Part shown: piece by piece, positions 6,860 to 64,000 of the stretch
Position numbering within the stretch: the first letter of the stretch is position 1
Layout: each line of letters opens with the position of its first letter
DNA from: an uncultured Planctomycetota bacterium
GTDB lineage: Bacteria; Planctomycetota; PLA2; JAEUHO01
Direction of reading: 5' to 3'
DNA length: 64,000 nucleotides
Assembly: GCA_963752285.1 (NCBI GenBank)
Contig: CAVVXN010000005.1
Location: 128,001-192,000 of the forward strand
Position numbers and translations under genes: made by a program
The notes under the pieces: generated by a model
Seen by the model: only the letters and a program-made list of their open reading frames with translations
Told to the model about the DNA's origin: nothing
The model's database searches: none

Positions 6860-8176
6860 TCAGTACCGATAGGCGTCCGGCTTGTAGGGACCGTCCTGCG
6901 GGACGCCGAGGTACGCGGCCTGCGCGTCGGAGAGTCGCGTCAGATGCACGCCGAGCTTCTCGAGGTGCAGGCGGGCGACCTCCTCGTCGAGGCTCTTCGG
7001 GAGCACGTGGACGCCGAGGGGGAGCGGCGGCTTCGACGTCCAGAGGAGGATCTGCGCGAGGACCTGGTTCGTGAACGAGGCCGACATCACGAACGAGGGG
7101 TGACCCGTCGCGCAACCGAGGTTCACGAGACGACCCCGCGCGAGGAGGATCAGGTACCGCCCGTCGGCCCGGCGGAAGCGGTCCACCTGGGGCTTCACGC
7201 TCTCCTCGGTGATGCCGCCGGTGGTCTCGAGCCAGTGGACGTCGATCTCGTGGTCGAAGTGGCCGATGTTGCAGAGGATCACGTTGTCCTTCATCGCGAG
7301 CATGTGCTCGCTCCGGACCACGTCCTTGCAGCCGGTGGCGGTGACGAAGATGTCGCCGACGGGGGCGGCCTCCTCCATCGTCACGACCTCGTACCCCTCC
7401 ATGGCCGCCTGGAGCGCGCAGATCGGGTCGATCTCGGTGACGAGCACGCGCGCGCCGAGGCCGCGCATCGACTGGCAGCAGCCCTTGCCGACGTCGCCGT
7501 ACCCGGCGACGACGACGACCTTCCCGGCCACCATCACGCCCGTCGCGCGCTTCAGTCCGTCGGCGAGCGACTCTCGGCAACCGTACAGGTTGTCGAACTT
7601 CGACTTCGTGACCGAGTCGTTCACGTTCACGGCGGGGATCCGGAGCGTGCCTCTCTCGTGGGCCTGGTAGAGGCGGTGGACGCCCGTCGTCGTCTCCTCG
7701 GAGAGGCCCTGGACGCCGGGGACCAGCTCGGGGTGCCGGTCGTGGACGATCCAGGTGAGGTCGCCGCCGTCGTCGAGGAGCAGGTTCGGACCGCGGCCGT
7801 CGGGCCACTGGAGCGTCTGCTCGATGCACCACTCGTACTCCTCGAGGGTCTCGCCCTTCCAGGCGAAGACGGGGACGCCGGCCTTCGCGACCGCGGCCGC
7901 CGCGTGGTCCTCCGTCGAGTAGATGTTGCAGGACGACCACCGAACCTCGGCCCCGAGGTGCACGAGCGTCTCGATCAGGATCGCCGTCTCGACGGTCATG
8001 TGGAGGCATCCGGCGATCCGCGCGCCGGCCAGGGGCTTCGTCTTCCCGTACCGCTCGCGGAGCGCCATCAGCCCGGGCATCTCGGGCTCGGAGATGGCGA
8101 TCTCCATGCGTCCGGCCCCGGCCAGGGCGATGTCCTTCACCTTGTAGTCGGTGGGGGTCGTGGTCATCGGCGTCAT
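6860..8176 (-). CDS. ahcY: S-adenosylhomocysteine hydrolase
   Basis: Motifs [45 protein letters not shown] and C-terminal YRY. An alternative ATG lies at 8167. Confidence 0.97.
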
Positions 8177-16836: not shown

Positions 16837-16874
16837 TTGACAGGAGCCGGTCGAAGTATAAGTAGGTGCTTATG
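16837..16874 (+). promoter_or_regulatory. Sigma70-type promoter with overlapping ArsR/SmtB-type inverted-repeat operator
   Basis: TTGACA at 16837-16842 and an AT-rich -10-like region at 16857-16864. An imperfect inverted repeat TATAAGTA-GG-TGCTTATG (16857-16874) overlaps the ATG. Confidence 0.6.
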
Positions 16875-17378
16875 CGTTCAGGCGGGTGCTGTTCGGGGGG
16901 GGCCGGGCTCGAGGTCGCGGCGACGGCGAAGTTCTTCCGCGGGCTGGGCGACGCGTCGCGGCTCCGGATCGCGGTCGCTCTCCTCGAGGGGCCGTGCTCC
17001 GTCGGCGAGCTCGTGCGGGCGACGGGGCTGTCGCAGCCCAACGCCTCGACGCATCTGGCGTGCATGCGGTGCTGCGGGCTCGTCGAGTTCGAGCAGCGGG
17101 GGCGCCGCCGCTACTACAGGCTCGCGGACGCCGAGCTCGTGAAGATGCTCGGGATGGCCGGCGCCATCGTGCAGCGGGCCCGCGAGTCGATCCTCGCCTG
17201 CAGCCGCTACGAGTCGGAGTCGCGCGCCGACGGGAGGACCTCGAATGCGGACGGTCGTGCTCCTCGGGCTCGCGAGCGCGCTCGGCGGCTGCGCCGTGCC
17301 GCCGCCTCCGGCGCCGAGCCTGGCGACGTCGCCCGCGGTCGCCCCCGTCGTCCTGTCCGCGTCCGGCCCGGCGGCTAG
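16872..17378 (+). CDS. ArsR/SmtB family metal-sensing repressor, CmtR-like
   Basis: F.GLGD.SRLRI...SVGELV...LSQPNASTHLACMRCCGLV...YYRL. It has Cys in helix 4, a C-terminal Cys (ILAC) and an N-terminal CC. The ORF overlaps the next gene by 134 nt. Confidence 0.88.
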   Translation: MRSGGCCSGGAGLEVAATAKFFRGLGDASRLRIAVALLEGPCSVGELVRATGLSQPNASTHLACMRCCGLVEFEQRGRRRYYRLADAELVKMLGMAGAIVQRARESILACSRYESESRADGRTSNADGRAPRARERARRLRRAAASGAEPGDVARGRPRRPVRVRPGG

Positions 17379-18582
17379 GTCGGGGGCTCCCGAGGGCGAT
17401 CCGGCGGTCGCGAGGCTCTTGGCGCTGACGGATCGGGCGAATCCCGTCCTGGCCGCGGAGCGAAAGGGGATCGACGTGGCCACCGCCGCGGTCTGGCAGG
17501 CCGAGCTCGCCCCGAACCCCACGCTGGAGGCGGAGGTCGAGGACTACCGTCTCGGCGTCGGCTCGTGGCACGGGTCCACGCGGCGCGTCGGCGTGAGCGT
17601 TCCGCTCGTCGTGAGCGGAAGGCTTCGGGCGGCCCGCACCGCCGCGGAGGCGGAGCGGGACGTGAAGCGGCTCCAGTACGTCTCGAAGCGCGAGGAGGTG
17701 TTCCTCGAGGTCCGCCGGGCGTACGTGGACCTCGCGGCGGCGCGCCGGCTCCACGAGGTGGCGGTCGCGGCGCGAGACCTCGCCGCGGGGCTGGTCGAGA
17801 CGGTGCGGGCCCGCCACCAGGCGGGGGTGGCGCCCGAGTCCGAGGTGTGGCGCACCGAGATCGAGCGATCGAGGGCCGAGAGCGACGTCGAAACCACGGC
17901 CCGCGACGTCGAGGCCGCCCGGCGCGTGCTCGACGCGGCCGTGGGGGCGCCCGTTCCCGGCGCCGTCGCCGACGCCTCCGTGCTCGCGGCGGGCTACGAG
18001 GTCCCCTCGTGGGAGGCCCTCCGGGCCTTGACGGCCAAGCACCGCGAGGTCGGCGTGGCGAGGTCCGAGGCGGTCGCCGCGCGCACGCGGATCGAGCTCG
18101 CCCAAGCGGAGACGTTTCGCGATCCCGACCTGCACGTGAGCGCCGGCGAGAACGAGGCCGGCGACTCCGTCGTCGGCCTCGGCGTGGGCGTGCCTCTGCC
18201 CTTGAACGACCGGGGGCAAGCCCGCCTCGCCTCGGCGCGGGCCGCCTACGAGGCCGCGGTCCTCCGCGTGGAGGGCGTCCGACGGGACGTAGAGCGTAGA
18301 GGCGCGGGTCTCTACCGCGACTTCGTCACGGCGGAGGAGCGCGCGCGCCGGTACGAGAACGAGATCCTGCCCGCCGCCGAGAAGGCGCTCGAGCAGACAC
18401 GCGCGGGGTACGAGGTGGGCAAGCTCCCGTATCTCGAGGTGCTCGACGCGCGCCGGACCCTCGCCGAAGCCCGCGTGGCGCACGTCCAGGCCCTGGCTGA
18501 CATGAATCGAGCCGCACAGGAGATCGAGTCGTTCCTCTGCGTGTATCTGGTCCCCACGACTCGGGAGGAGATGAGCTCGTGA
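17245..18582 (+). CDS. czcC: Outer membrane efflux protein, TolC/CzcC family (lipoprotein)
   Basis: GGAGG RBS and lipobox LGGC. Motifs PNPTL, VPLPL.DR.Q and Y..G..PYLEVLDARR. Confidence 0.88.
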   Translation: MRTVVLLGLASALGGCAVPPPPAPSLATSPAVAPVVLSASGPAARSGAPEGDPAVARLLALTDRANPVLAAERKGIDVATAAVWQAELAPNPTLEAEVEDYRLGVGSWHGSTRRVGVSVPLVVSGRLRAARTAAEAERDVKRLQYVSKREEVFLEVRRAYVDLAAARRLHEVAVAARDLAAGLVETVRARHQAGVAPESEVWRTEIERSRAESDVETTARDVEAARRVLDAAVGAPVPGAVADASVLAAGYEVPSWEALRALTAKHREVGVARSEAVAARTRIELAQAETFRDPDLHVSAGENEAGDSVVGLGVGVPLPLNDRGQARLASARAAYEAAVLRVEGVRRDVERRGAGLYRDFVTAEERARRYENEILPAAEKALEQTRAGYEVGKLPYLEVLDARRTLAEARVAHVQALADMNRAAQEIESFLCVYLVPTTREEMSS

Positions 18583-19040
18583 AGCGCACGTTCGTGATCC
18601 TGACGACGCTGGCCTGTCTCGCGGGGGGTCTCGCGCGGGCCGGGGACCCGCCCGCGGAGCTCCGCAAGAACGACCAGCGCATCCAGATCCCCGGCAAGCT
18701 CGTGAGCATCGGAGAGACCCTCGGGTCCCTCGGCGCGAACGCCCAAGACTCCCTCTACACGCGCGGCGCCCTCGGCCTGCTCGCCCCGGACGGGGAGCTC
18801 TGGTCGTTCGTGGACAACCAGAAGGGGCACGGCGTCCTGACGAACGAGCGGTGGAAGGGGAAGGAGACCCGCATCCTCGGCTGGAAGTACCCGAAGACGC
18901 GGTACATCGAGATCTCGAAGCTCGAGCTCCGGGACGGCGACGCCTGGGTGGCGTACGACTACTGCAAGTCCTGCGGGTGGGAGCCCGGAGACAACCACGA
19001 CCGCGACCTCTGCGAGGACTGCGCCGAGGAGGAGAAGTAG
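18579..19040 (+). CDS. Secreted small protein with C-terminal CxxC...CxxC (putative periplasmic metal-binding protein)
   Basis: Signal peptide and translational coupling to czcC. The C-terminus is YCKSCGWEPGDNHDRDLCEDCAEEEK. Confidence 0.7.
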   Translation: MKRTFVILTTLACLAGGLARAGDPPAELRKNDQRIQIPGKLVSIGETLGSLGANAQDSLYTRGALGLLAPDGELWSFVDNQKGHGVLTNERWKGKETRILGWKYPKTRYIEISKLELRDGDAWVAYDYCKSCGWEPGDNHDRDLCEDCAEEEK

Positions 19041-19043
19041 GCC

Positions 19044-20345
19044 GTGCTGGCGCGACTCCTCCACGGCCTGATGACGCTCGCGGTCTTCGCCGGGCTCGGC
19101 AACGCGTTCTACGCCGTGGGGCACGAGGGGCGGTGGCCCTGGCAGGAGCCGCCCGGCCACGGCACCGACTGGTGCGAGGCGCACGGGGTGCCGCTCTCCC
19201 AGGACGAGCAGTGCAACCGGGAGCTCGCCCGCGGGGGTCTTCTTCTCGTCCGCGACGGCGAGCCGCGCGAAGGGGAGTGTCCGAACACGTACGTGCGCAT
19301 CACGATGCCTCCGGAGGTGGTGGAGAACGCCGGCATCGAGACCCGCGAGGTCGAACCCGTCCTCGTGACGGAGTCGATCCGCGCCACCGCCGAGACCGAC
19401 TATCTGCCCGGCGCGTACGCGCGCGTCGCGCCGCGCGTCGTCGGCGCGGTGACCGAGGTGCGCGCGAGCGTGGGGATGTCCGTCGCCGCGGGCGAGGTGG
19501 TCGCCGTGATCGACTCGCAGGCGGTCGGGGAGTCGGTCGCGGAGCTCCGCCGGGCGCAGGCGATCTTCCGCCTCCGCGAGCGGACGTACGCCCAGGAGGA
19601 GGAGCTCAGCCGGAAGGACATCGGCACGAGGCGCGACCTCCTGGAGGCGGAAGCCGGCCTCGACGAGGCCCGCGTCGAGCTCGGGGCGGCCCGGCAACGC
19701 CTGCGCGTCCAGGGCCTGGGCTCGGCGGAGATCGAACGGCTGGCGACCTCCGACGAGGTGGCGACCAGCGTGGAGGTCCGGGCGCCGATCGCCGGCACCG
19801 TGCTCGACGTTGGCGCGGTCGTCGGGGACACGGTCGGTCCGGAGCGCGCGCTCTGCGCGATCGCCGACGTCTCCCGCCTGCGCCTCGACATCGACGTCTA
19901 CGAGCAGGACCTGCCGAAGATCGAGAGCGGGCAGCGGGTGGTGTTCCGACTGGACGGCCTGCCCGGGCAGCACTTCGTGGGCCACGTCCAGTCGGTCGGG
20001 GGGGCCGTGGACGAGGCGACGAGGACGATCCCCGTGGTCGCCGACGTGAAGAACAAGGAGGGCCTCCTGCACGCGAGGATGTTCGGGCACGCCGAGATCC
20101 GCGTACGACCCGCGGAGCCGAAGATCGTCGTGCCGGAGTCGGCGGTCCAGACCGACGGGGACTGCTGGTTCGTCTTCACGAACCCCGTGCCGAACGTCTT
20201 CAAGACCCGGGCCGTGGAGCTCGGCGCCGCCTACAGCGGTGGCTTCGAGATCCGGGGCGGCCTCGCGAAGGGCGACCGCATCGTCACGACCGGGAGCTTC
20301 CAGCTCAAGACGGAGGTGCTCCGGGGCGAGATGGGCGCGGGGTGA
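19044..20345 (+). CDS. czcB: RND efflux periplasmic adaptor (CzcB/CusB family); may extend through a Sec UGA to 20360
   Basis: N-terminal TM with a WCEAHGVP motif, lipoyl and hairpin domains, VRAPIAGTV, VDEATRT, VPESAVQ and GL.KGDRIVTTGSF.LK. Confidence 0.92.
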   Translation: MLARLLHGLMTLAVFAGLGNAFYAVGHEGRWPWQEPPGHGTDWCEAHGVPLSQDEQCNRELARGGLLLVRDGEPREGECPNTYVRITMPPEVVENAGIETREVEPVLVTESIRATAETDYLPGAYARVAPRVVGAVTEVRASVGMSVAAGEVVAVIDSQAVGESVAELRRAQAIFRLRERTYAQEEELSRKDIGTRRDLLEAEAGLDEARVELGAARQRLRVQGLGSAEIERLATSDEVATSVEVRAPIAGTVLDVGAVVGDTVGPERALCAIADVSRLRLDIDVYEQDLPKIESGQRVVFRLDGLPGQHFVGHVQSVGGAVDEATRTIPVVADVKNKEGLLHARMFGHAEIRVRPAEPKIVVPESAVQTDGDCWFVFTNPVPNVFKTRAVELGAAYSGGFEIRGGLAKGDRIVTTGSFQLKTEVLRGEMGAG

Positions 20346-20385
20346 TGCGTCGAGAAGTGAGCCGCGGTCGCGGCTGAGGACGCGT
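20345..20385 (+). other. Putative bacterial SECIS element
   Basis: Lower stem ATGCGTC (20345-20351)/GACGCGT (20379-20385), upper stem AGCCGC (20360-20365)/GCGGCT (20370-20375) and apical loop GGTC. The loop starts 21 nt after the in-frame TGA at 20343-20345. Confidence 0.55.
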
Positions 20386-20411
20386 TCCCGGGAAGCACGA
20401 GACGAGAGCCC

Positions 20412-23573
<3,162 letters not shown>

Positions 23574-25006
23574 GCGTGACCGGGACGGTCTCGTCGCCGC
23601 GCCGGACGTCGAGGGGGACCGTGCCCTTCGCCGCGGCGAGGACCGCGCGGAGCTCGTCCGCGTCGCGGACCGGCGTGCCCGCGCTCGCGACGATCACGTC
23701 GCCGCGACGAAGGCCCGCGATCGCGGCCGCTTTCCCGGCGTCGACGGAGCGGACGACGACGCCCGAGGCCGAGGCGTCCATCCCGAGGAACGCCGCGAGC
23801 TCCGGTCCGAGCGTCACGATCTCGAGGCCCAGCGCGTCGGGGCTCACGAGGCGCGCGCGCGCCTCGCTCCGGTCTCCGAGGGTCACCTTCACCTCCCGGC
23901 GCCCGTCGTCGCCCTCCACGCGGAGCACGACGTCGTCCCCCGGACGGCGGAGCGCGAGCGCCCGCGTGAGCCCCGCGGAGTCGGGGACGGCCACGCCGTC
24001 GAGCGCGAGGACCGAGTCGCCCTCGCGAAGGCCCGCTCTCGCGGCCGGCGAGTCCGGCAGGACCGACATCAGGCGCGCGCGCGGCTCGCCTTCCTCCGCC
24101 GACACGTCGCCGAGCACGACGCCCACGTACGCGGAGCGGATCCGGCCGCTCGCGTCGAGATCCTCGATCGCCCGCCGGATCGCCGCGGCGGGGACGGTCC
24201 CGCCCCGTCCCCGTTCGGGATCGGACCCGCGCCGCGAACACGGCGCCGTAGACCCAATCCTGCTCTCGTGTTCGTGTGGAGGCGAGGCAGCGTCACCCGG
24301 ACGGGCTCCACGGGGACGACCGCGCCCGAGATCTCCGCGCCCGAGATCTCCCTTCCGTTCCCGTCCAGCACGTATGCCGCGTCGAGCCGTGGGACGACGC
24401 GGAGAAGCGACCCCGCCGAGAGGAAGCGGGCCCTCGTGGCACCCGGCGCGCGTTCCACGGCGATTCCCGCGAGCTCGCCCCTCGTCGTGACGAGCGCTCC
24501 GCCCGCGTCGCTCGCCTCGACCTTCGGCGCACGCGTCAGCGGGTCCACGCCGCCCACGACGAGGAGCCGCGGGCGTTCGCCGGCCGAGAGGACGAGCGTG
24601 CCCCGGCGGACGGCGTCGTCGGGCGCGAGCGCGAGGCCGTGGACCTCGCGCGCGGCCGTCTCGGGGAGCGCGTACACGGCGACCCCCAGCTCGTCGTCGG
24701 CGGCGACGAGCGTCGCCTCGACCTCGAGCGCGTTCTCGAGGACCGCGTGGAGCGTCCTCTCGCCGCGCGAGACGAGCCAGGCCACGACGAGTCGCGGCGG
24801 CGAGCCGACGAGGACGCCCTGCGCCTCGCCCTCGTCGGTCCGGACGCGGGCCGTGGCACCGTCCGCCCGGTCGGCGAGCGCGACCGTCTCGGCGTTCAGC
24901 CGCTCGAGGAGGGAGTCGGGCTCGTCGGCGCGGGCGCCCGGGGGCGGGAGGAGGAGCGCGAGCAGGAGGGCGGCGAAGGGGAGCAGGTGCTTCGGCATGT
25001 CGGGCC

Positions 25007-25429
25007 TCAACGGATGCGCCGCGGCGTGAGCGGCAGGAGCACGGGTTCGACGGGGACGGTGGGACGGGCGAACGACTCGCGCGCGTCCGCGCTCGAGGCT
25101 CTGGGCCCCGGCGCGCGACTCGTCACGACGAGCGTCACGACGACGCCGGCGGCGAACGCCGCGACGTGGCCGAGCGCGAGGCGCACCGCGCGTCGTGGCG
25201 CGCGGGGGGCCGGCGCGCGCGCCCGGATCCGCGACGCGAGGTCCATCGGCGGCCCGGGCACCTCGTACGGTCGGTAGAGCCGCGCCCGGTCCGCGGCGTG
25301 CCGTCGCGCCTCCTCGGCGCAGGACGTGCAGCCTTCGAGGTGCGCGCGCACGCGTCGTGCGCGCTCGGGCGCGAGAAGGTCGTCGAGGTGGTCCGGGAGG
25401 AGGGCGCGGACTTCCGAGCAGTCGTTCAT
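25007..25429 (-). CDS. Anti-sigma factor, zf-HC2 (ZAS) with TM helix
   Basis: C..V..LL...LD...HLEGCTSC (HxxxCxxC) followed by a TM segment. ATGA overlap with the sigma factor. Confidence 0.88.
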   Translation of the reverse strand: MNDCSEVRALLPDHLDDLLAPERARRVRAHLEGCTSCAEEARRHAADRARLYRPYEVPGPPMDLASRIRARAPAPRAPRRAVRLALGHVAAFAAGVVVTLVVTSRAPGPRASSADARESFARPTVPVEPVLLPLTPRRIR

Positions 25430-61549: not shown

Positions 61550-64000
61550 ATGGTGCACGTTCGCACGGTCCGCGGATTCGCCTTCGGCCTTGCCGTACTC
61601 GCCCTCGCCCTTGCCGCGCCCGCGTGCGGGGGAGGTGGCGGCGGCGCGAGCGGGGGTGCAAACCTCGTCCTCGTCGGCTTCCTGCAGTCGGGAACCGACA
61701 CGGCTCCGGTGAACACGGAGCTCCAGCTGACCTTCAGCGAGCCGGTGGACCCGGCGACGGTGAACGCGGGATCCGTCGAGATCCGCGAGGCCCCGGCCTT
61801 CGGCCTCACGGCCACGGGGACGTTCATCGTGCAGGGGAGCACCGTGCTCTTCCGTCCGAAGCTGCCCACCGACTGCGCGCTGCTCACGGGCGGACTGAAG
61901 CCGGGGACGACCTACCGGGTCACGGTGGTCGGCTATCCCGAGGAGTTCTCGATCAAGAGCATGAGCGGGTCGCCCCTCGAGCGCACCCAGAACTTCACCT
62001 TCAGCACGCTGCCCGAGACGAACTCGGACGTGCTGCAGGACCAGATCCCGGCCACGGCGCCGGTCGTGCTCTCCACCTCACCGGCCTCGCACGACGCGGC
62101 CGTCCCGGTGGTGGACGGCAACGAGATCGACGTGAACCTGAGCGAGAACCTCGACCCCTGCACCGTCAGCAAGGCGAACATCCAGCTCCACGTGTACCAG
62201 GTCGGTGCGCAGGCCGCGTACGTGCCGGCTCCGAACGGGCACAACTCGGGCTTCACGCCGATCGCGGACCAGGACACGGGTAACCCGTACTCCTGGGGCG
62301 CCTCGAACTCGACGACCCTCACGCCGCCGCAGCTCCTCCCGGCGAACATCGTGCTGGAGCAGACGCTCACCGCGACGCGCATCCGGGTGATCCCGAAGTT
62401 CGGCCGGTTCCCGGACAACAGCCTGGTCGTGCTCGAGCTCTCGTTCGGCGTCAAGGACTTCGGCGGGGACGGCCTGCCGCCCACCGTGGTCAAGTTCACG
62501 ACCGAGAACCAGCCGGCTCAGGACGGCGCGCTCTCGATCCCCTTCGACTCGACCACCCCGATCGTGAAGGGTCTCACGAGTGCGGACGTGAACACGGCGC
62601 GCGCGCCGGGCAAGGCGCAGGCCTTCCTGCTCTTCGCCGGCGACGGCGACAACGGGAGCACGTTCCTCACGCCGACCTTCCCGCGGGCCACGGCCGACTG
62701 CGCCTTCCGCGCGAACTCGGGCGTGAAGACCGACTTCAACCCCGACCCCACGACGACGCCCAGCGTGAACCTCGACACCGGCTCCACCCGGAACACGGCC
62801 TGCAACAACCAGACGGACGGCTCGACCGCCGTGGTCTGGGAGTTCGGGACGTTCCACCTCCAGCCCGGCGTGGTGGTCCGCATCGTGGGCAAGAACCCCG
62901 CGATCCTGCTGTGCCAGGGCGACGTGATGATCGAGACCGGCGCGACCCTGAAGGTCCGCGGTGACGGCGTGAACGGCTCCCCCAAGAGCGACGGGGCGAA
63001 CGGCCAGGGCTACATCTACTCGGGCGGCTACTTCTACCCCGTGAAGACCCTCGGCGGCTCCGGCACGGCGGGCGCCGGTGACGGCGGCGTCGCGCACTCG
63101 CGCTACGCCGAGAACCTCGTGTACAGCGAGAACGGGTGGGCCGGCTACTCGAGCCCCGACTACAACACGCCCGGCGAACAAGGCGGCGTCGGCGCGGGCG
63201 AGGGCCAGCCGGGCCTCAACTCGAATACGTCGAACGCGGGCTGCGGCTACGGTGGCGGTGGCGGCGGTCACGCGACCAAGGGCGCCGACGGCGGGAACTT
63301 CCTCGACTCGACCGAGAGCGAGGTGACCACGGAGCCGATCCAGGGTCATGGCCTCGGTGGCGACACGTACCCGACCGGCGCCAGCGCCGACCGCATGTTC
63401 ACTCCCTCGGCCGGCTCGGGCGGCGGTGGGGGCGGCGGTAACTCCTACAGCTCGTACACCCTCTACGACGGCCCGGGCGGCGGCGGCGGCGCCGGCGGCG
63501 GGTTCGTGGACATCACGTCGGGCGGCGGGATCTACATCTACGGGACGCTGGACGCGTCGGGTGGCCACGGCGGCAACGGGTCGCAGGGCTACTACAGCTA
63601 CTACGTCCCGGGTGGCGGTGGCGGCGGCGGCTCGGGCGGCGGCATCCGCCTCCTGACGCCGAACGACATCGACATCTCGGGCGGGACCGTGATCGCGGCC
63701 GGCGGCGCGGGCGGCATCGGTGGCTGGACGACGTACATGTCCACCACGGCGCAGCGAAACAACGGCGGCCTCGGCGGCCTCGGTCGCCTCGTCATGGAGG
63801 ACGGGGACTCGGTGATCACCGGTTTCGGCCTCGCGACGATCGCCCCGACGGAGGGCCAGGACGGCTTCTACCGCGGCAAGTTCTCGGCTTCCCGCTTCCA
63901 GGGCGGCGGCCTGAACCCCGTTGCGACCACCGACTTCATCTTCCTCGGGCCGATCTCCGCCGCGACCTTCTACTCCGCCCAGGCGTCGGACTTCGTCATG
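61550..64000 (+). CDS. Large surface lipoprotein with Ig-like (Big_5-type) domains and Gly-rich repeats (runs off window end; absent from the ORF track)
   Basis: Read from 61550 as MVHVRTVRGFAFGLAVLALALAAPA-CGGGGGG, with LTFSEPVDPATV, V.STSP, NLSENLDP and later GGGGGGH, GSGGG and GGGGGGSGGGI. GGAG RBS is present. Confidence 0.85.
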   Translation, partial: MVHVRTVRGFAFGLAVLALALAAPACGGGGGGASGGANLVLVGFLQSGTDTAPVNTELQLTFSEPVDPATVNAGSVEIREAPAFGLTATGTFIVQGSTVLFRPKLPTDCALLTGGLKPGTTYRVTVVGYPEEFSIKSMSGSPLERTQNFTFSTLPETNSDVLQDQIPATAPVVLSTSPASHDAAVPVVDGNEIDVNLSENLDPCTVSKANIQLHVYQVGAQAAYVPAPNGHNSGFTPIADQDTGNPYSWGASNSTTLTPPQLLPANIVLEQTLTATRIRVIPKFGRFPDNSLVVLELSFGVKDFGGDGLPPTVVKFTTENQPAQDGALSIPFDSTTPIVKGLTSADVNTARAPGKAQAFLLFAGDGDNGSTFLTPTFPRATADCAFRANSGVKTDFNPDPTTTPSVNLDTGSTRNTACNNQTDGSTAVVWEFGTFHLQPGVVVRIVGKNPAILLCQGDVMIETGATLKVRGDGVNGSPKSDGANGQGYIYSGGYFYPVKTLGGSGTAGAGDGGVAHSRYAENLVYSENGWAGYSSPDYNTPGEQGGVGAGEGQPGLNSNTSNAGCGYGGGGGGHATKGADGGNFLDSTESEVTTEPIQGHGLGGDTYPTGASADRMFTPSAGSGGGGGGGNSYSSYTLYDGPGGGGGAGGGFVDITSGGGIYIYGTLDASGGHGGNGSQGYYSYYVPGGGGGGGSGGGIRLLTPNDIDISGGTVIAAGGAGGIGGWTTYMSTTAQRNNGGLGGLGRLVMEDGDSVITGFGLATIAPTEGQDGFYRGKFSASRFQGGGLNPVATTDFIFLGPISAATFYSAQASDFVM

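Follow-up and report, generated by a model that had tools for sequence, protein, structure and literature searches.

In the Cu(I)/Ag(I) efflux system of Escherichia coli, the periplasmic adaptor CusB binds metal on a flexible terminal segment through N-terminal methionines and feeds it to the pump CusA, helped by the small periplasmic chaperone CusF. ZneB–ZneA of Cupriavidus metallidurans, a Zn(II) system (structures 3lnn and 4k0e), is encoded by a tripartite heavy-metal efflux operon, as is the system described here, whose adaptor and pump find their best match in sequence and fold in ZneB and ZneA. The locus lies in a 64,000-nt stretch of DNA from an uncultured Planctomycetota bacterium (assembly GCA_963752285.1, contig CAVVXN010000005.1, positions 128,001–192,000 of the forward strand), which was analysed as a whole and is called the window below. 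The gene in question encodes the periplasmic adaptor, or membrane fusion protein, of a resistance-nodulation-division (RND) heavy-metal pump, and carries an in-frame TGA at 20343–20345. Comparison with related genes suggested that this TGA is very probably a selenocysteine (Sec) codon, at which residue U434 would be inserted by the standard bacterial route of SelB, Sec-tRNA(Sec) and an mRNA stem-loop.

Sec has been reported in bacterial transport proteins. According to a 2026 review of prokaryotic selenoproteomes (PMC13188914) and a preprint (bioRxiv 10.1101/2022.07.06.499078), Sec replaces Cys in the metal-ligand motif of an SO_0444-family Cu/Zn efflux transporter (U-S-C), a MerT-like protein and a P-type ATPase, and proteins of the SaoC, KCU-star and UXX-star type, whose Sec insertion sequence (SECIS) lies beyond the stop codon, have been suggested to act as metal ligands. 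The accessible portion of the review lists MerT-like, P-type ATPase, YeeE/YedE, SaoB/SaoX/SaoP/SaoC and SO_0444 as Sec-containing transport proteins, and in that portion, family table included, the terms "RND", "membrane fusion", "HlyD" and "adaptor" do not occur. Nor do these terms occur in the main text of the GOS study, of Peng et al. 2016, of deep-Sep or of BSepDB, or in the deep-Sep supplements. Full-text searches of the literature found no RND-adaptor or membrane-fusion selenoprotein, a coverage that does not extend to Haft & Tolstoy 2025 or the BSepDB supplement; families from Haft & Tolstoy 2025 do appear in the table of the review, as far as that source was available. As far as we have seen, the adaptor would represent a new selenoprotein family of the bacterial Sec/Cys type with a SECIS, and the first in an RND efflux system.

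In-frame UGA at the end of the adaptor gene

The adaptor open reading frame (ORF) as annotated (19044..20345, + strand) encodes 433 aa and ends with ATG GGC GCG GGG (20331–20342) followed by the TGA, reading M-G-A-G-[UGA]. The first-pass annotation of this DNA had placed the end of the adaptor here and had pointed out that the frame continues, and the sequence of 20331–20360 agrees on both counts. Four tail codons, TGC GTC GAG AAG (C-V-E-K, 20346–20357), and a second TGA (20358–20360) follow the first one on the + strand, the whole tail segment occupying 20346..20360. The proposed frame, 19044..20360, encodes 438 aa with Sec at residue 434.

The C-terminus was compared with those of the 120 best homologs listed in a search of 5.8 billion clustered proteins. 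Exactly at G-x-G, usually as ...LRGQMGAG, end 78 of these, while 41 continue as G-A-G-C-C and one differs. The division follows similarity: among the 80 closest proteins (P0002–P0081, 43–100% identity) all but two stop at G-x-G, the exceptions being GAGCCPEK and GAGCCPPK, and 39 of the 40 more distant proteins run on as GAGCC plus a longer tail, with one that differs. One group is thus truncated exactly where the others keep Cys, a pattern classically seen in databases when a selenoprotein has gone unrecognised. Endings in GAGCC, which the first-pass annotation had mentioned for related planctomycete adaptors, were seen in P0027, P0062 and locus L003.

DNA was compared for the window and 80 related loci from a scan of genome contigs, 81 genes in total. 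A stop codon directly follows G-A-G in 30 genes (the window, L001, L002, L004–L028, L035 and L069), and in each of the 30 it is TGA, never TAA or TAG. The remaining 51 genes have TGY TGY (Cys-Cys) at the UGA position, which puts the UGA in register with the leading Cys of a conserved G-A-G-C-C motif in 51/81 loci as well as in 41/120 listed homologs. For 28 clade members with DNA compared, the G-x-G end of the protein corresponds to an in-frame TGA.

The TGA could be read as an ordinary stop after ...MGAG, with the TGC and the tail as the decaying relic of a Cys-Cys tail. TGA is indeed the commonest ordinary stop in the window, ending 30 of 44 rough ORFs, a frequency that also excludes a reassigned genetic code. 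However, an ordinary stop would be expected to vary freely between the three stop codons, as happens at the real stops of the 81 genes (TAG 47, TGA 25, TAA 9). This variation is seen both at the tail-ending stops of the 30 UGA genes (TAG 17, TGA 10, TAA 3) and at the stops of the 51 Cys forms (TAG 30, TGA 15, TAA 6), but the codon after G-A-G is always TGA, which argues that it is not an ordinary stop.

The tail itself is also conserved. The codon after the UGA encodes Cys in 25 of the 30 genes (TGC 17, TGT 8), where 2–4 further conserved residues complete the tail, and in three more the Cys stands one codon later, at +2 (USCSK once and UGCSE twice). Tails read CPEK, CPEE, CPDK, CPGE, CVEK, CIEK and similar, their codons varying synonymously (CCG/CCC/CCA, GAG/GAA and AAG/AAA, for example), and the Cys form L003 reads CCPEK. 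Frame, residues and synonymous variation kept across this divergence indicate that the stretch is translated; a relic would have lost the frame, the Cys and the P-E/D-K/E tail within a clade whose identities extend down to about 42%. Taken with the hairpin evidence given below, an ordinary stop is very unlikely.

To place the UGA forms in the family, a maximum likelihood tree (quick search, LG+G4) was calculated from the last 400 residues of each of the 81 adaptors, with the tail excluded. The UGA forms other than L069, 29 in number, and the nested Cys form L003 formed one deep clade, all from Planctomycetota, with a Shimodaira–Hasegawa-like approximate likelihood ratio (SH-aLRT) support of 100. 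Within it, the window adaptor groups with L001 (70% identity), L002 and L018. The UGA/Cys state needs a minimum of three changes on this tree, versus about 24 for shuffled labels. L003 is best read as a Sec-to-Cys reversal inside the UGA clade. L069 (tail UADD) falls outside the main clade, among Cys forms beside L060, and possibly marks a second origin of the UGA form or a true stop.

The wider family was surveyed in a scan of 1.84 billion representatives. Among the best 150, seven end at G-x-G (P0067, P0122, P0123, P0126, P0135, P0184 and P0250) and at least 60 continue as GxGCC. Other tails in the range P0122–P0270 have just one Cys, in the form Cys-x-Asp/His, or read His-x-His, after the conserved helix end ...LK(S/T)E......G-x-G. 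To judge from their sequences, P0123 (850 aa), P0135 and P0184 may be further UGA forms. Since the tails vary among Cys-Cys, Cys-x-Asp/His and His-x-His, the position appears to hold a variable metal-ligand motif that ends a conserved helix, with U-C as one variant, and the tail looks like a tunable metal-ligand motif.

Stem-loop downstream of the UGA

A two-tier hairpin directly 3' of the UGA had been proposed by the first-pass annotation, and the minimum free energy (MFE) fold of 20340–20395 contains it, including the 7-bp lower stem, in which one pair is U-G. The whole hairpin spans 20340..20389 (+ strand), with the lower stem at 20344–20351/20379–20386 and an 8-nt purine-rich internal loop at 20352–20359. 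The candidate SECIS core is the apical stem-loop at 20360..20375 (+ strand), in which the upper stem AGCCGC/GCGGCU (20360–20365/20370–20375) closes the loop GGUC (20366–20369), which occupies nt 21–24 after the UGA. In bacterial SECIS elements, as described for bSECISearch and E. coli fdhF, the loop lies 16–37 nt away from the UGA and has G as its first or second nucleotide.

The MFE of this segment was -26.7 kcal/mol, compared with -19.2 ± 2.5 for 200 dinucleotide shuffles (z -3.0), one of which folded as well. By itself, the window hairpin is moderately unusual and is weak evidence in DNA of 74% G+C. Its significance rests on conservation in relatives, which was assessed in several ways. In the span +10..+50 counted from the UGA, perfect stems of 5 bp or more were present in 27/29 UGA loci versus 8/50 Cys loci (Mann-Whitney p 7e-13 for the stem score and 7e-9 for the MFE). 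In the UGA loci the stem starts at +14..+22 and the loop at +21..+26. L027, which is outside the count of 29, has the hairpin ACGGCCAC-GGGG-UGGCCG. Because this span is partly intergenic in the UGA loci, the test was repeated around the true stop (-6..+45). Stems of at least 5 bp were then present in 28/30 UGA versus 22/51 Cys forms, and stems of at least 6 bp in 24/30 versus 11/51 (p 1e-11).

The stem sequences are diverse and include AGCCGC/GCGGCU, GGGGCCC/GGGUCCC, GACUGAGG/CCUCGGUC, AGUUGCGCC/GGCGCGACU, GAAUCGC/GCGAUUC and CGGAC/GUCCG, among others. The loops (GGUC, GUC, GUG, GGA, GGU, GGG, GGC, GUU and the C-GUGA type) have G at position 1 or 2 in each hairpin listed. The lower stem is not conserved across the loci and was seen in some relatives only. 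A covariance model built from a MAFFT alignment recovered the left-out sequences L027 (E 4.7e-5) and L003 (E 8e-4), with six weak matches elsewhere (E 0.0095–0.82) in 992,318 bases of the loci. In the alignment of 31 sequences fitted to this model, 84.9% of cells were paired and compensatory changes occurred in 5/5 pairs. The covariation score was 0.579, versus 0.181 for shuffled sequences (0/500 reached 0.579) and 0.07–0.18 with the pairing partners slid. The unfitted MAFFT alignment showed the same five pairs, all with compensatory changes, and more broken cells. Conservation of UGA plus hairpin with covariation, named at the outset as a check on the Sec assignment, is therefore seen among the UGA loci, and the hairpin is much rarer in the Cys forms.

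If the TGA were an ordinary stop, the hairpin would instead be an intercistronic element, such as an mRNA stabiliser, a processing site or a device for translational coupling. The stems of at least 5 bp near the stop in 22 of the 51 Cys forms agree with such a role. However, the distance between UGA and hairpin is narrow, as the loop positions above show, the stem of L011 takes in the true stop, and no terminator-like site was found there, so that a terminator was also rejected. A match of 20300–20430 to the Rfam S4-leader family (E 1.8) was dismissed as chance.

Under the Sec assignment, the GC-rich stem-loop, with its loop starting 21 nt after the UGA, would act as a bacterial SECIS and bring SelB, together with its Sec-tRNA(Sec), to a ribosome that has paused at the UGA. 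Sec would be inserted, C-V-E-K read, and translation ended at the TGA of 20358–20360, with the SECIS lying mostly beyond this true stop.

Second UGA codon in the operon of relatives and proposed Sec decoding

Directly upstream of the adaptor gene, the ORF at 18579..19040 (+ strand) encodes, as seen in its translation, a small secreted protein ending in ...YDYCKSCGWEPGDNHDRDLCEDCAEEEK (CxxC...CxxC), without a Pfam or NCBIfam match. In the window this protein contains Cys only, and the second Cys of its first CxxC is encoded by TGC. In seven related loci, by contrast, an in-frame TGA stands at that Cys (CKT-U-GFE...; L005:4799, L006:5863, L009:5815, L019:5921, L020:5923, L022:5908 and L026:5960), and the conserved sequence runs on past it to the normal end of the protein. 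Five of these seven genes have a hairpin of 7–9 bp starting 20–26 nt downstream. The small CxxU protein is likely a second, undescribed selenoprotein family in the same operon, and this independent TGA-for-Cys exchange gives indirect support for Sec decoding in the relatives. Most small-protein relatives (among L003–L027) carry an additional N-terminal motif, IVC-x-GC...AQCTLH-x-KH, which has been lost from the proteins of the window, L001, L002 and L018 (LVSIGETL...AQDSLYTRG).

Translation of the tail could also mean that, with the hairpin as stimulus, the UGA is decoded by a suppressor or by a near-cognate tRNA for Trp, Cys or Arg, so that short and long adaptors would occur side by side. 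In other systems, 3' structures do promote readthrough of stop codons, and the comparative data on the adaptor tail speak for its translation, not for which residue goes in. The position is nevertheless homologous to Cys in 51/81 loci, a classical Sec/Cys exchange, and the hairpin fits the bacterial SECIS criteria in size, distance and loop G. In addition, Trp or Arg in the small protein would destroy the CxxC motif at which TGA replaces Cys in the seven loci. Furthermore, Planctomycetes that use Sec have been reported, complete Sec gene sets being given for Gemmata obscuriglobus, Isosphaera pallida and two other Planctomycetes in PMC4807772. Readthrough by a tRNA other than Sec-tRNA(Sec) is most unlikely.

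Several observations weigh against Sec decoding. ARAGORN found no tRNA-Sec in the 64-kb window, which contains no tRNA gene at all, or in 30 related loci; SelA, SelB and SelD were unmatched among the 44 ORFs of the window; and 0/106 flank ORFs of UGA-type loci matched sel genes or known selenoproteins (NCBIfam, E <= 1e-60). Only 3–5 codons follow the UGA, and the continued homology rests on correspondingly few residues. The following Cys is absent from two UGA forms, L025 (UTDD, 7279–7328) and L069 (7102–7151), both of which keep the hairpin. All the relatives are metagenome-assembled genomes. As for the hairpin, the fitted alignment used for covariation follows the model structure and leans towards it, no Rfam family matched (whole window at gathering thresholds; 20300–20430 at E <= 10), and its position in the spacer between adaptor and pump could mean another role. 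The Cys form L003 (7279–7329) keeps a hairpin as well, GAGCCG-CGGGA-CGGCUC, a sign either of a second role of the hairpin or of a recent reversal. The spacer position, the hairpin of L003 and the lack of Sec genes in the window and in the flanks of relatives also agree with an ordinary stop. The Sec-gene negatives, confined to the window and flanks, are missing evidence and not counter-evidence. We therefore retain Sec as the preferred assignment of the UGA, the conserved UGA, the following Cys with its tail, the hairpin and the homology to Cys being drawn from the comparison, and the SelB-dependent insertion of selenium, the binding of a metal and the kind of metal bound being inferred.

Operon, tail function and comparison with known systems

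The adaptor matched the general RND adaptor model TIGR01730 with 161.4 bits (cut-off 94.9) and Pfam HlyD_D23 with E 1e-39. The CzcB/NccB model TIGR00999 (140.4 bits, cut-off 319.3) and the CusB model NF007303 (53.7 bits, cut-off 390) were both missed, which makes the label czcB, given on first reading, a loose and descriptive one only. The 14 NCBIfam matches of the adaptor at E <= 0.001 included no selenoprotein model, and thus none of those for proteins with a C-terminal Sec (SaoC, KCU-star, UXX-star and the CC/Se motif). The closest solved structure is ZneB (3lnn; sequence E 6e-30, Foldseek E 3.6e-25), and the best Foldseek matches were ZneB, CusB and MacA, as expected of an adaptor with the membrane fusion protein fold. 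The ZneB alignment ends at query residue 416, indicating that this adaptor family is set apart by its C-terminal helix and tail. An AlphaFold2 model based on alignment A1 (mean predicted local distance difference test score, pLDDT, 88.1) showed an N-terminal membrane helix (2–26), the usual adaptor domains and a terminal helix (418–432). Residues 431–438 had a pLDDT below 50, which suggested a flexible, disordered tail. Residues W43-C44-x-x-H47 (W-C-x-x-H), C57 and C79 are invariant in the adaptor and C374 is near-invariant.

The operon begins with a Cys-rich regulator of the ArsR/SmtB family (16866..17378, + strand; PF01022 HTH_5, E 8e-14; G+C at third codon positions, GC3, 0.89), whose 3' boundary is uncertain, as the next gene was called from a start that lies within it. 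That gene encodes a TolC-like outer-membrane factor of the tripartite pump (17245..18582, + strand; PF02321 OEP, E 3.6e-44), for which the NCBIfam TolC, NodT and IhpA matches all stayed under their cut-offs. Directly 3' of the adaptor follows a heavy-metal RND pump of the CusA/CzcA family (20412..23573, + strand; TIGR00914, 1148 bits, cut-off 701), with ZneA (4k0e, E 1e-193) as its closest solved structure and CusA after it. An RND pump lies downstream of the adaptor in 80/80 related loci. The Cys-rich context that had been noted for the operon was borne out in the ArsR-family regulator, the CxxC...CxxC protein and the W-C-x-x-H motif of the adaptor.

In five UGA-type loci, P-type ATPases of the Zn/Cd/Pb type adjoin the operon (TIGR01512 above cut-off; L002:1798-3816, L010:2423-4669, L015:2587-4842, L018:8-2065 and L069:2199-4115), and additional CusA/CzcA-family pumps are present in several other loci. 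These neighbours place the operon in metal-resistance neighbourhoods.

Beyond the pump, on the minus strand at 23533–25010, a protease-like ORF of 312 aa without a family match (24069..25010) overlaps an ORF with two PDZ domains (23533..24126) by 58 nt in a different frame. The pair could represent one gene of the DegP/HtrA type that a frameshift or an error of sequencing has broken in two, or else two genes that overlap. The PDZ protein was rejected as a second selenoprotein, its match to "Trx7/PDZ (seleno)protein" reaching 55.8 bits against a cut-off of 300 and covering the PDZ domain only. When the window was screened for further long TGA-readthrough candidates, only chance same-frame neighbours and two ORFs of odd composition came up. 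At 61933–62985 on the minus strand, two ORFs parted by an in-frame TGA have a G+C of 0.45–0.53, about 0.6 and 0.97 at codon positions 1, 2 and 3, respectively, and no family matches; they are probably shadows of genes in another frame or strand and not real genes.

With Sec inserted at U434, the product would be a 438-aa membrane-anchored periplasmic adaptor of a ZneA/CusA-type pump with the disordered tail ...G-A-G-U-C-V-E-K, in which a vicinal selenol/thiol pair would stand in for the Cys-Cys pair of most relatives. The tail may serve as a mobile arm that ligates a thiophilic metal ion, capturing the ion in the periplasm, or taking it from the small CxxC protein, and then passing it to the pump. 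The invariant Cys and His positions of the adaptor, the ZneA-like pump next to it and the P-type ATPases beside the operon in several relatives point in this direction. On balance, we consider a metal-ligand function of the U-C tail reasonably probable, and a divalent ion of the Cd/Zn/Pb/Hg type is somewhat favoured over Cu(I)/Ag(I) as the ion bound.

A different function of the inserted Sec, as a redox centre, is compatible with the Sec assignment and concerns function only. The U-C pair would then form a selenenylsulfide and reduce Hg, Au(III), selenite or tellurite, or sense the periplasmic redox state. The arrangement of a vicinal Cys-Sec pair on a flexible C-terminal tail is that of thioredoxin reductase, and most known selenoproteins are redox enzymes according to PMC13188914. 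However, the adaptor is without a redox domain, the same tail position is H-x-H or C-x-D/H in the wider family, which are metal ligands and not redox pairs, and the neighbours are metal pumps and Zn/Cd/Pb-type P-type ATPases. A redox role is therefore unlikely, and the metal-ligand function is preferred.

As the UGA lies five codons from the end, failure of Sec insertion, for example during selenium shortage, would still give a near-full-length, tail-less adaptor. Selenium supply would decide between a tailed and a tail-less adaptor, not between protein and none. We speculated that selenium might assist a relay for RND metal efflux in operons of this type, which would be the first tripartite efflux system to contain selenoproteins, although this extension of the metal-ligand function is tentative and must be regarded as doubtful. 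In such a relay, the ZneA-like pump would receive a thiophilic metal from the mobile U-C arm through exchange of selenolate/thiolate ligands, the CxxU small periplasmic protein would take part in some lineages, and the adaptor would change with selenium supply from a basal form without the tail to a high-affinity form with it, and back. A relay of this kind would build a link between selenium status and metal detoxification into the operon.

If the Sec assignment is correct, a selenoprotein family exists in the periplasmic adaptor of an RND heavy-metal pump, where none has been recorded, and a second family, the small CxxU protein, may share its operon. This would fit the recent theme that bacterial Sec serves as a metal ligand and not as a redox catalyst alone. 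The family would also allow tails of the Sec-Cys, Cys-Cys, Cys-x-His and His-x-His types to be compared on a common scaffold. Moreover, annotation pipelines miss the adaptor Sec site, since the clusters among the 120 that end at G-x-G include NCBI, JGI and ENA records, and a family model could correct such truncated annotations.

Compared with ZneB, the closest relative of known structure, the terminal helix with its G-A-G-[C/U]-C tail, the N-terminal W-C-x-x-H and Cys motifs and the Sec are unmatched. CusB (3ne5) matches the adaptor in fold (E 1.4e-22), but in place of its N-terminal methionines the candidate ligands here are Cys and His near the N-terminus and Sec-Cys at the C-terminus, and the small protein of the operon, unlike CusF, is of no known family. 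Thioredoxin reductase, with its GCUG end, and MerA, with its C-terminal Cys-Cys, use a chalcogen pair on a mobile arm to hand electrons or Hg(II) to a buried site; both are flavoenzymes without sequence relation to the adaptor, and the likeness is one of design only. SaoC (Cys-Sec-COOH), KCU-star and UXX-star likewise have Sec near the C-terminus beside a Cys and a SECIS largely 3' of the ORF, but they belong to other protein families, whereas the host here is an RND adaptor and the order is U-C, not C-U. Finally, the SO_0444, MerT-like and P-type ATPase proteins with Sec are, in the parts of the review and preprint covered, inner-membrane permeases or ATPases and not RND components, in contrast to the adaptor described here.

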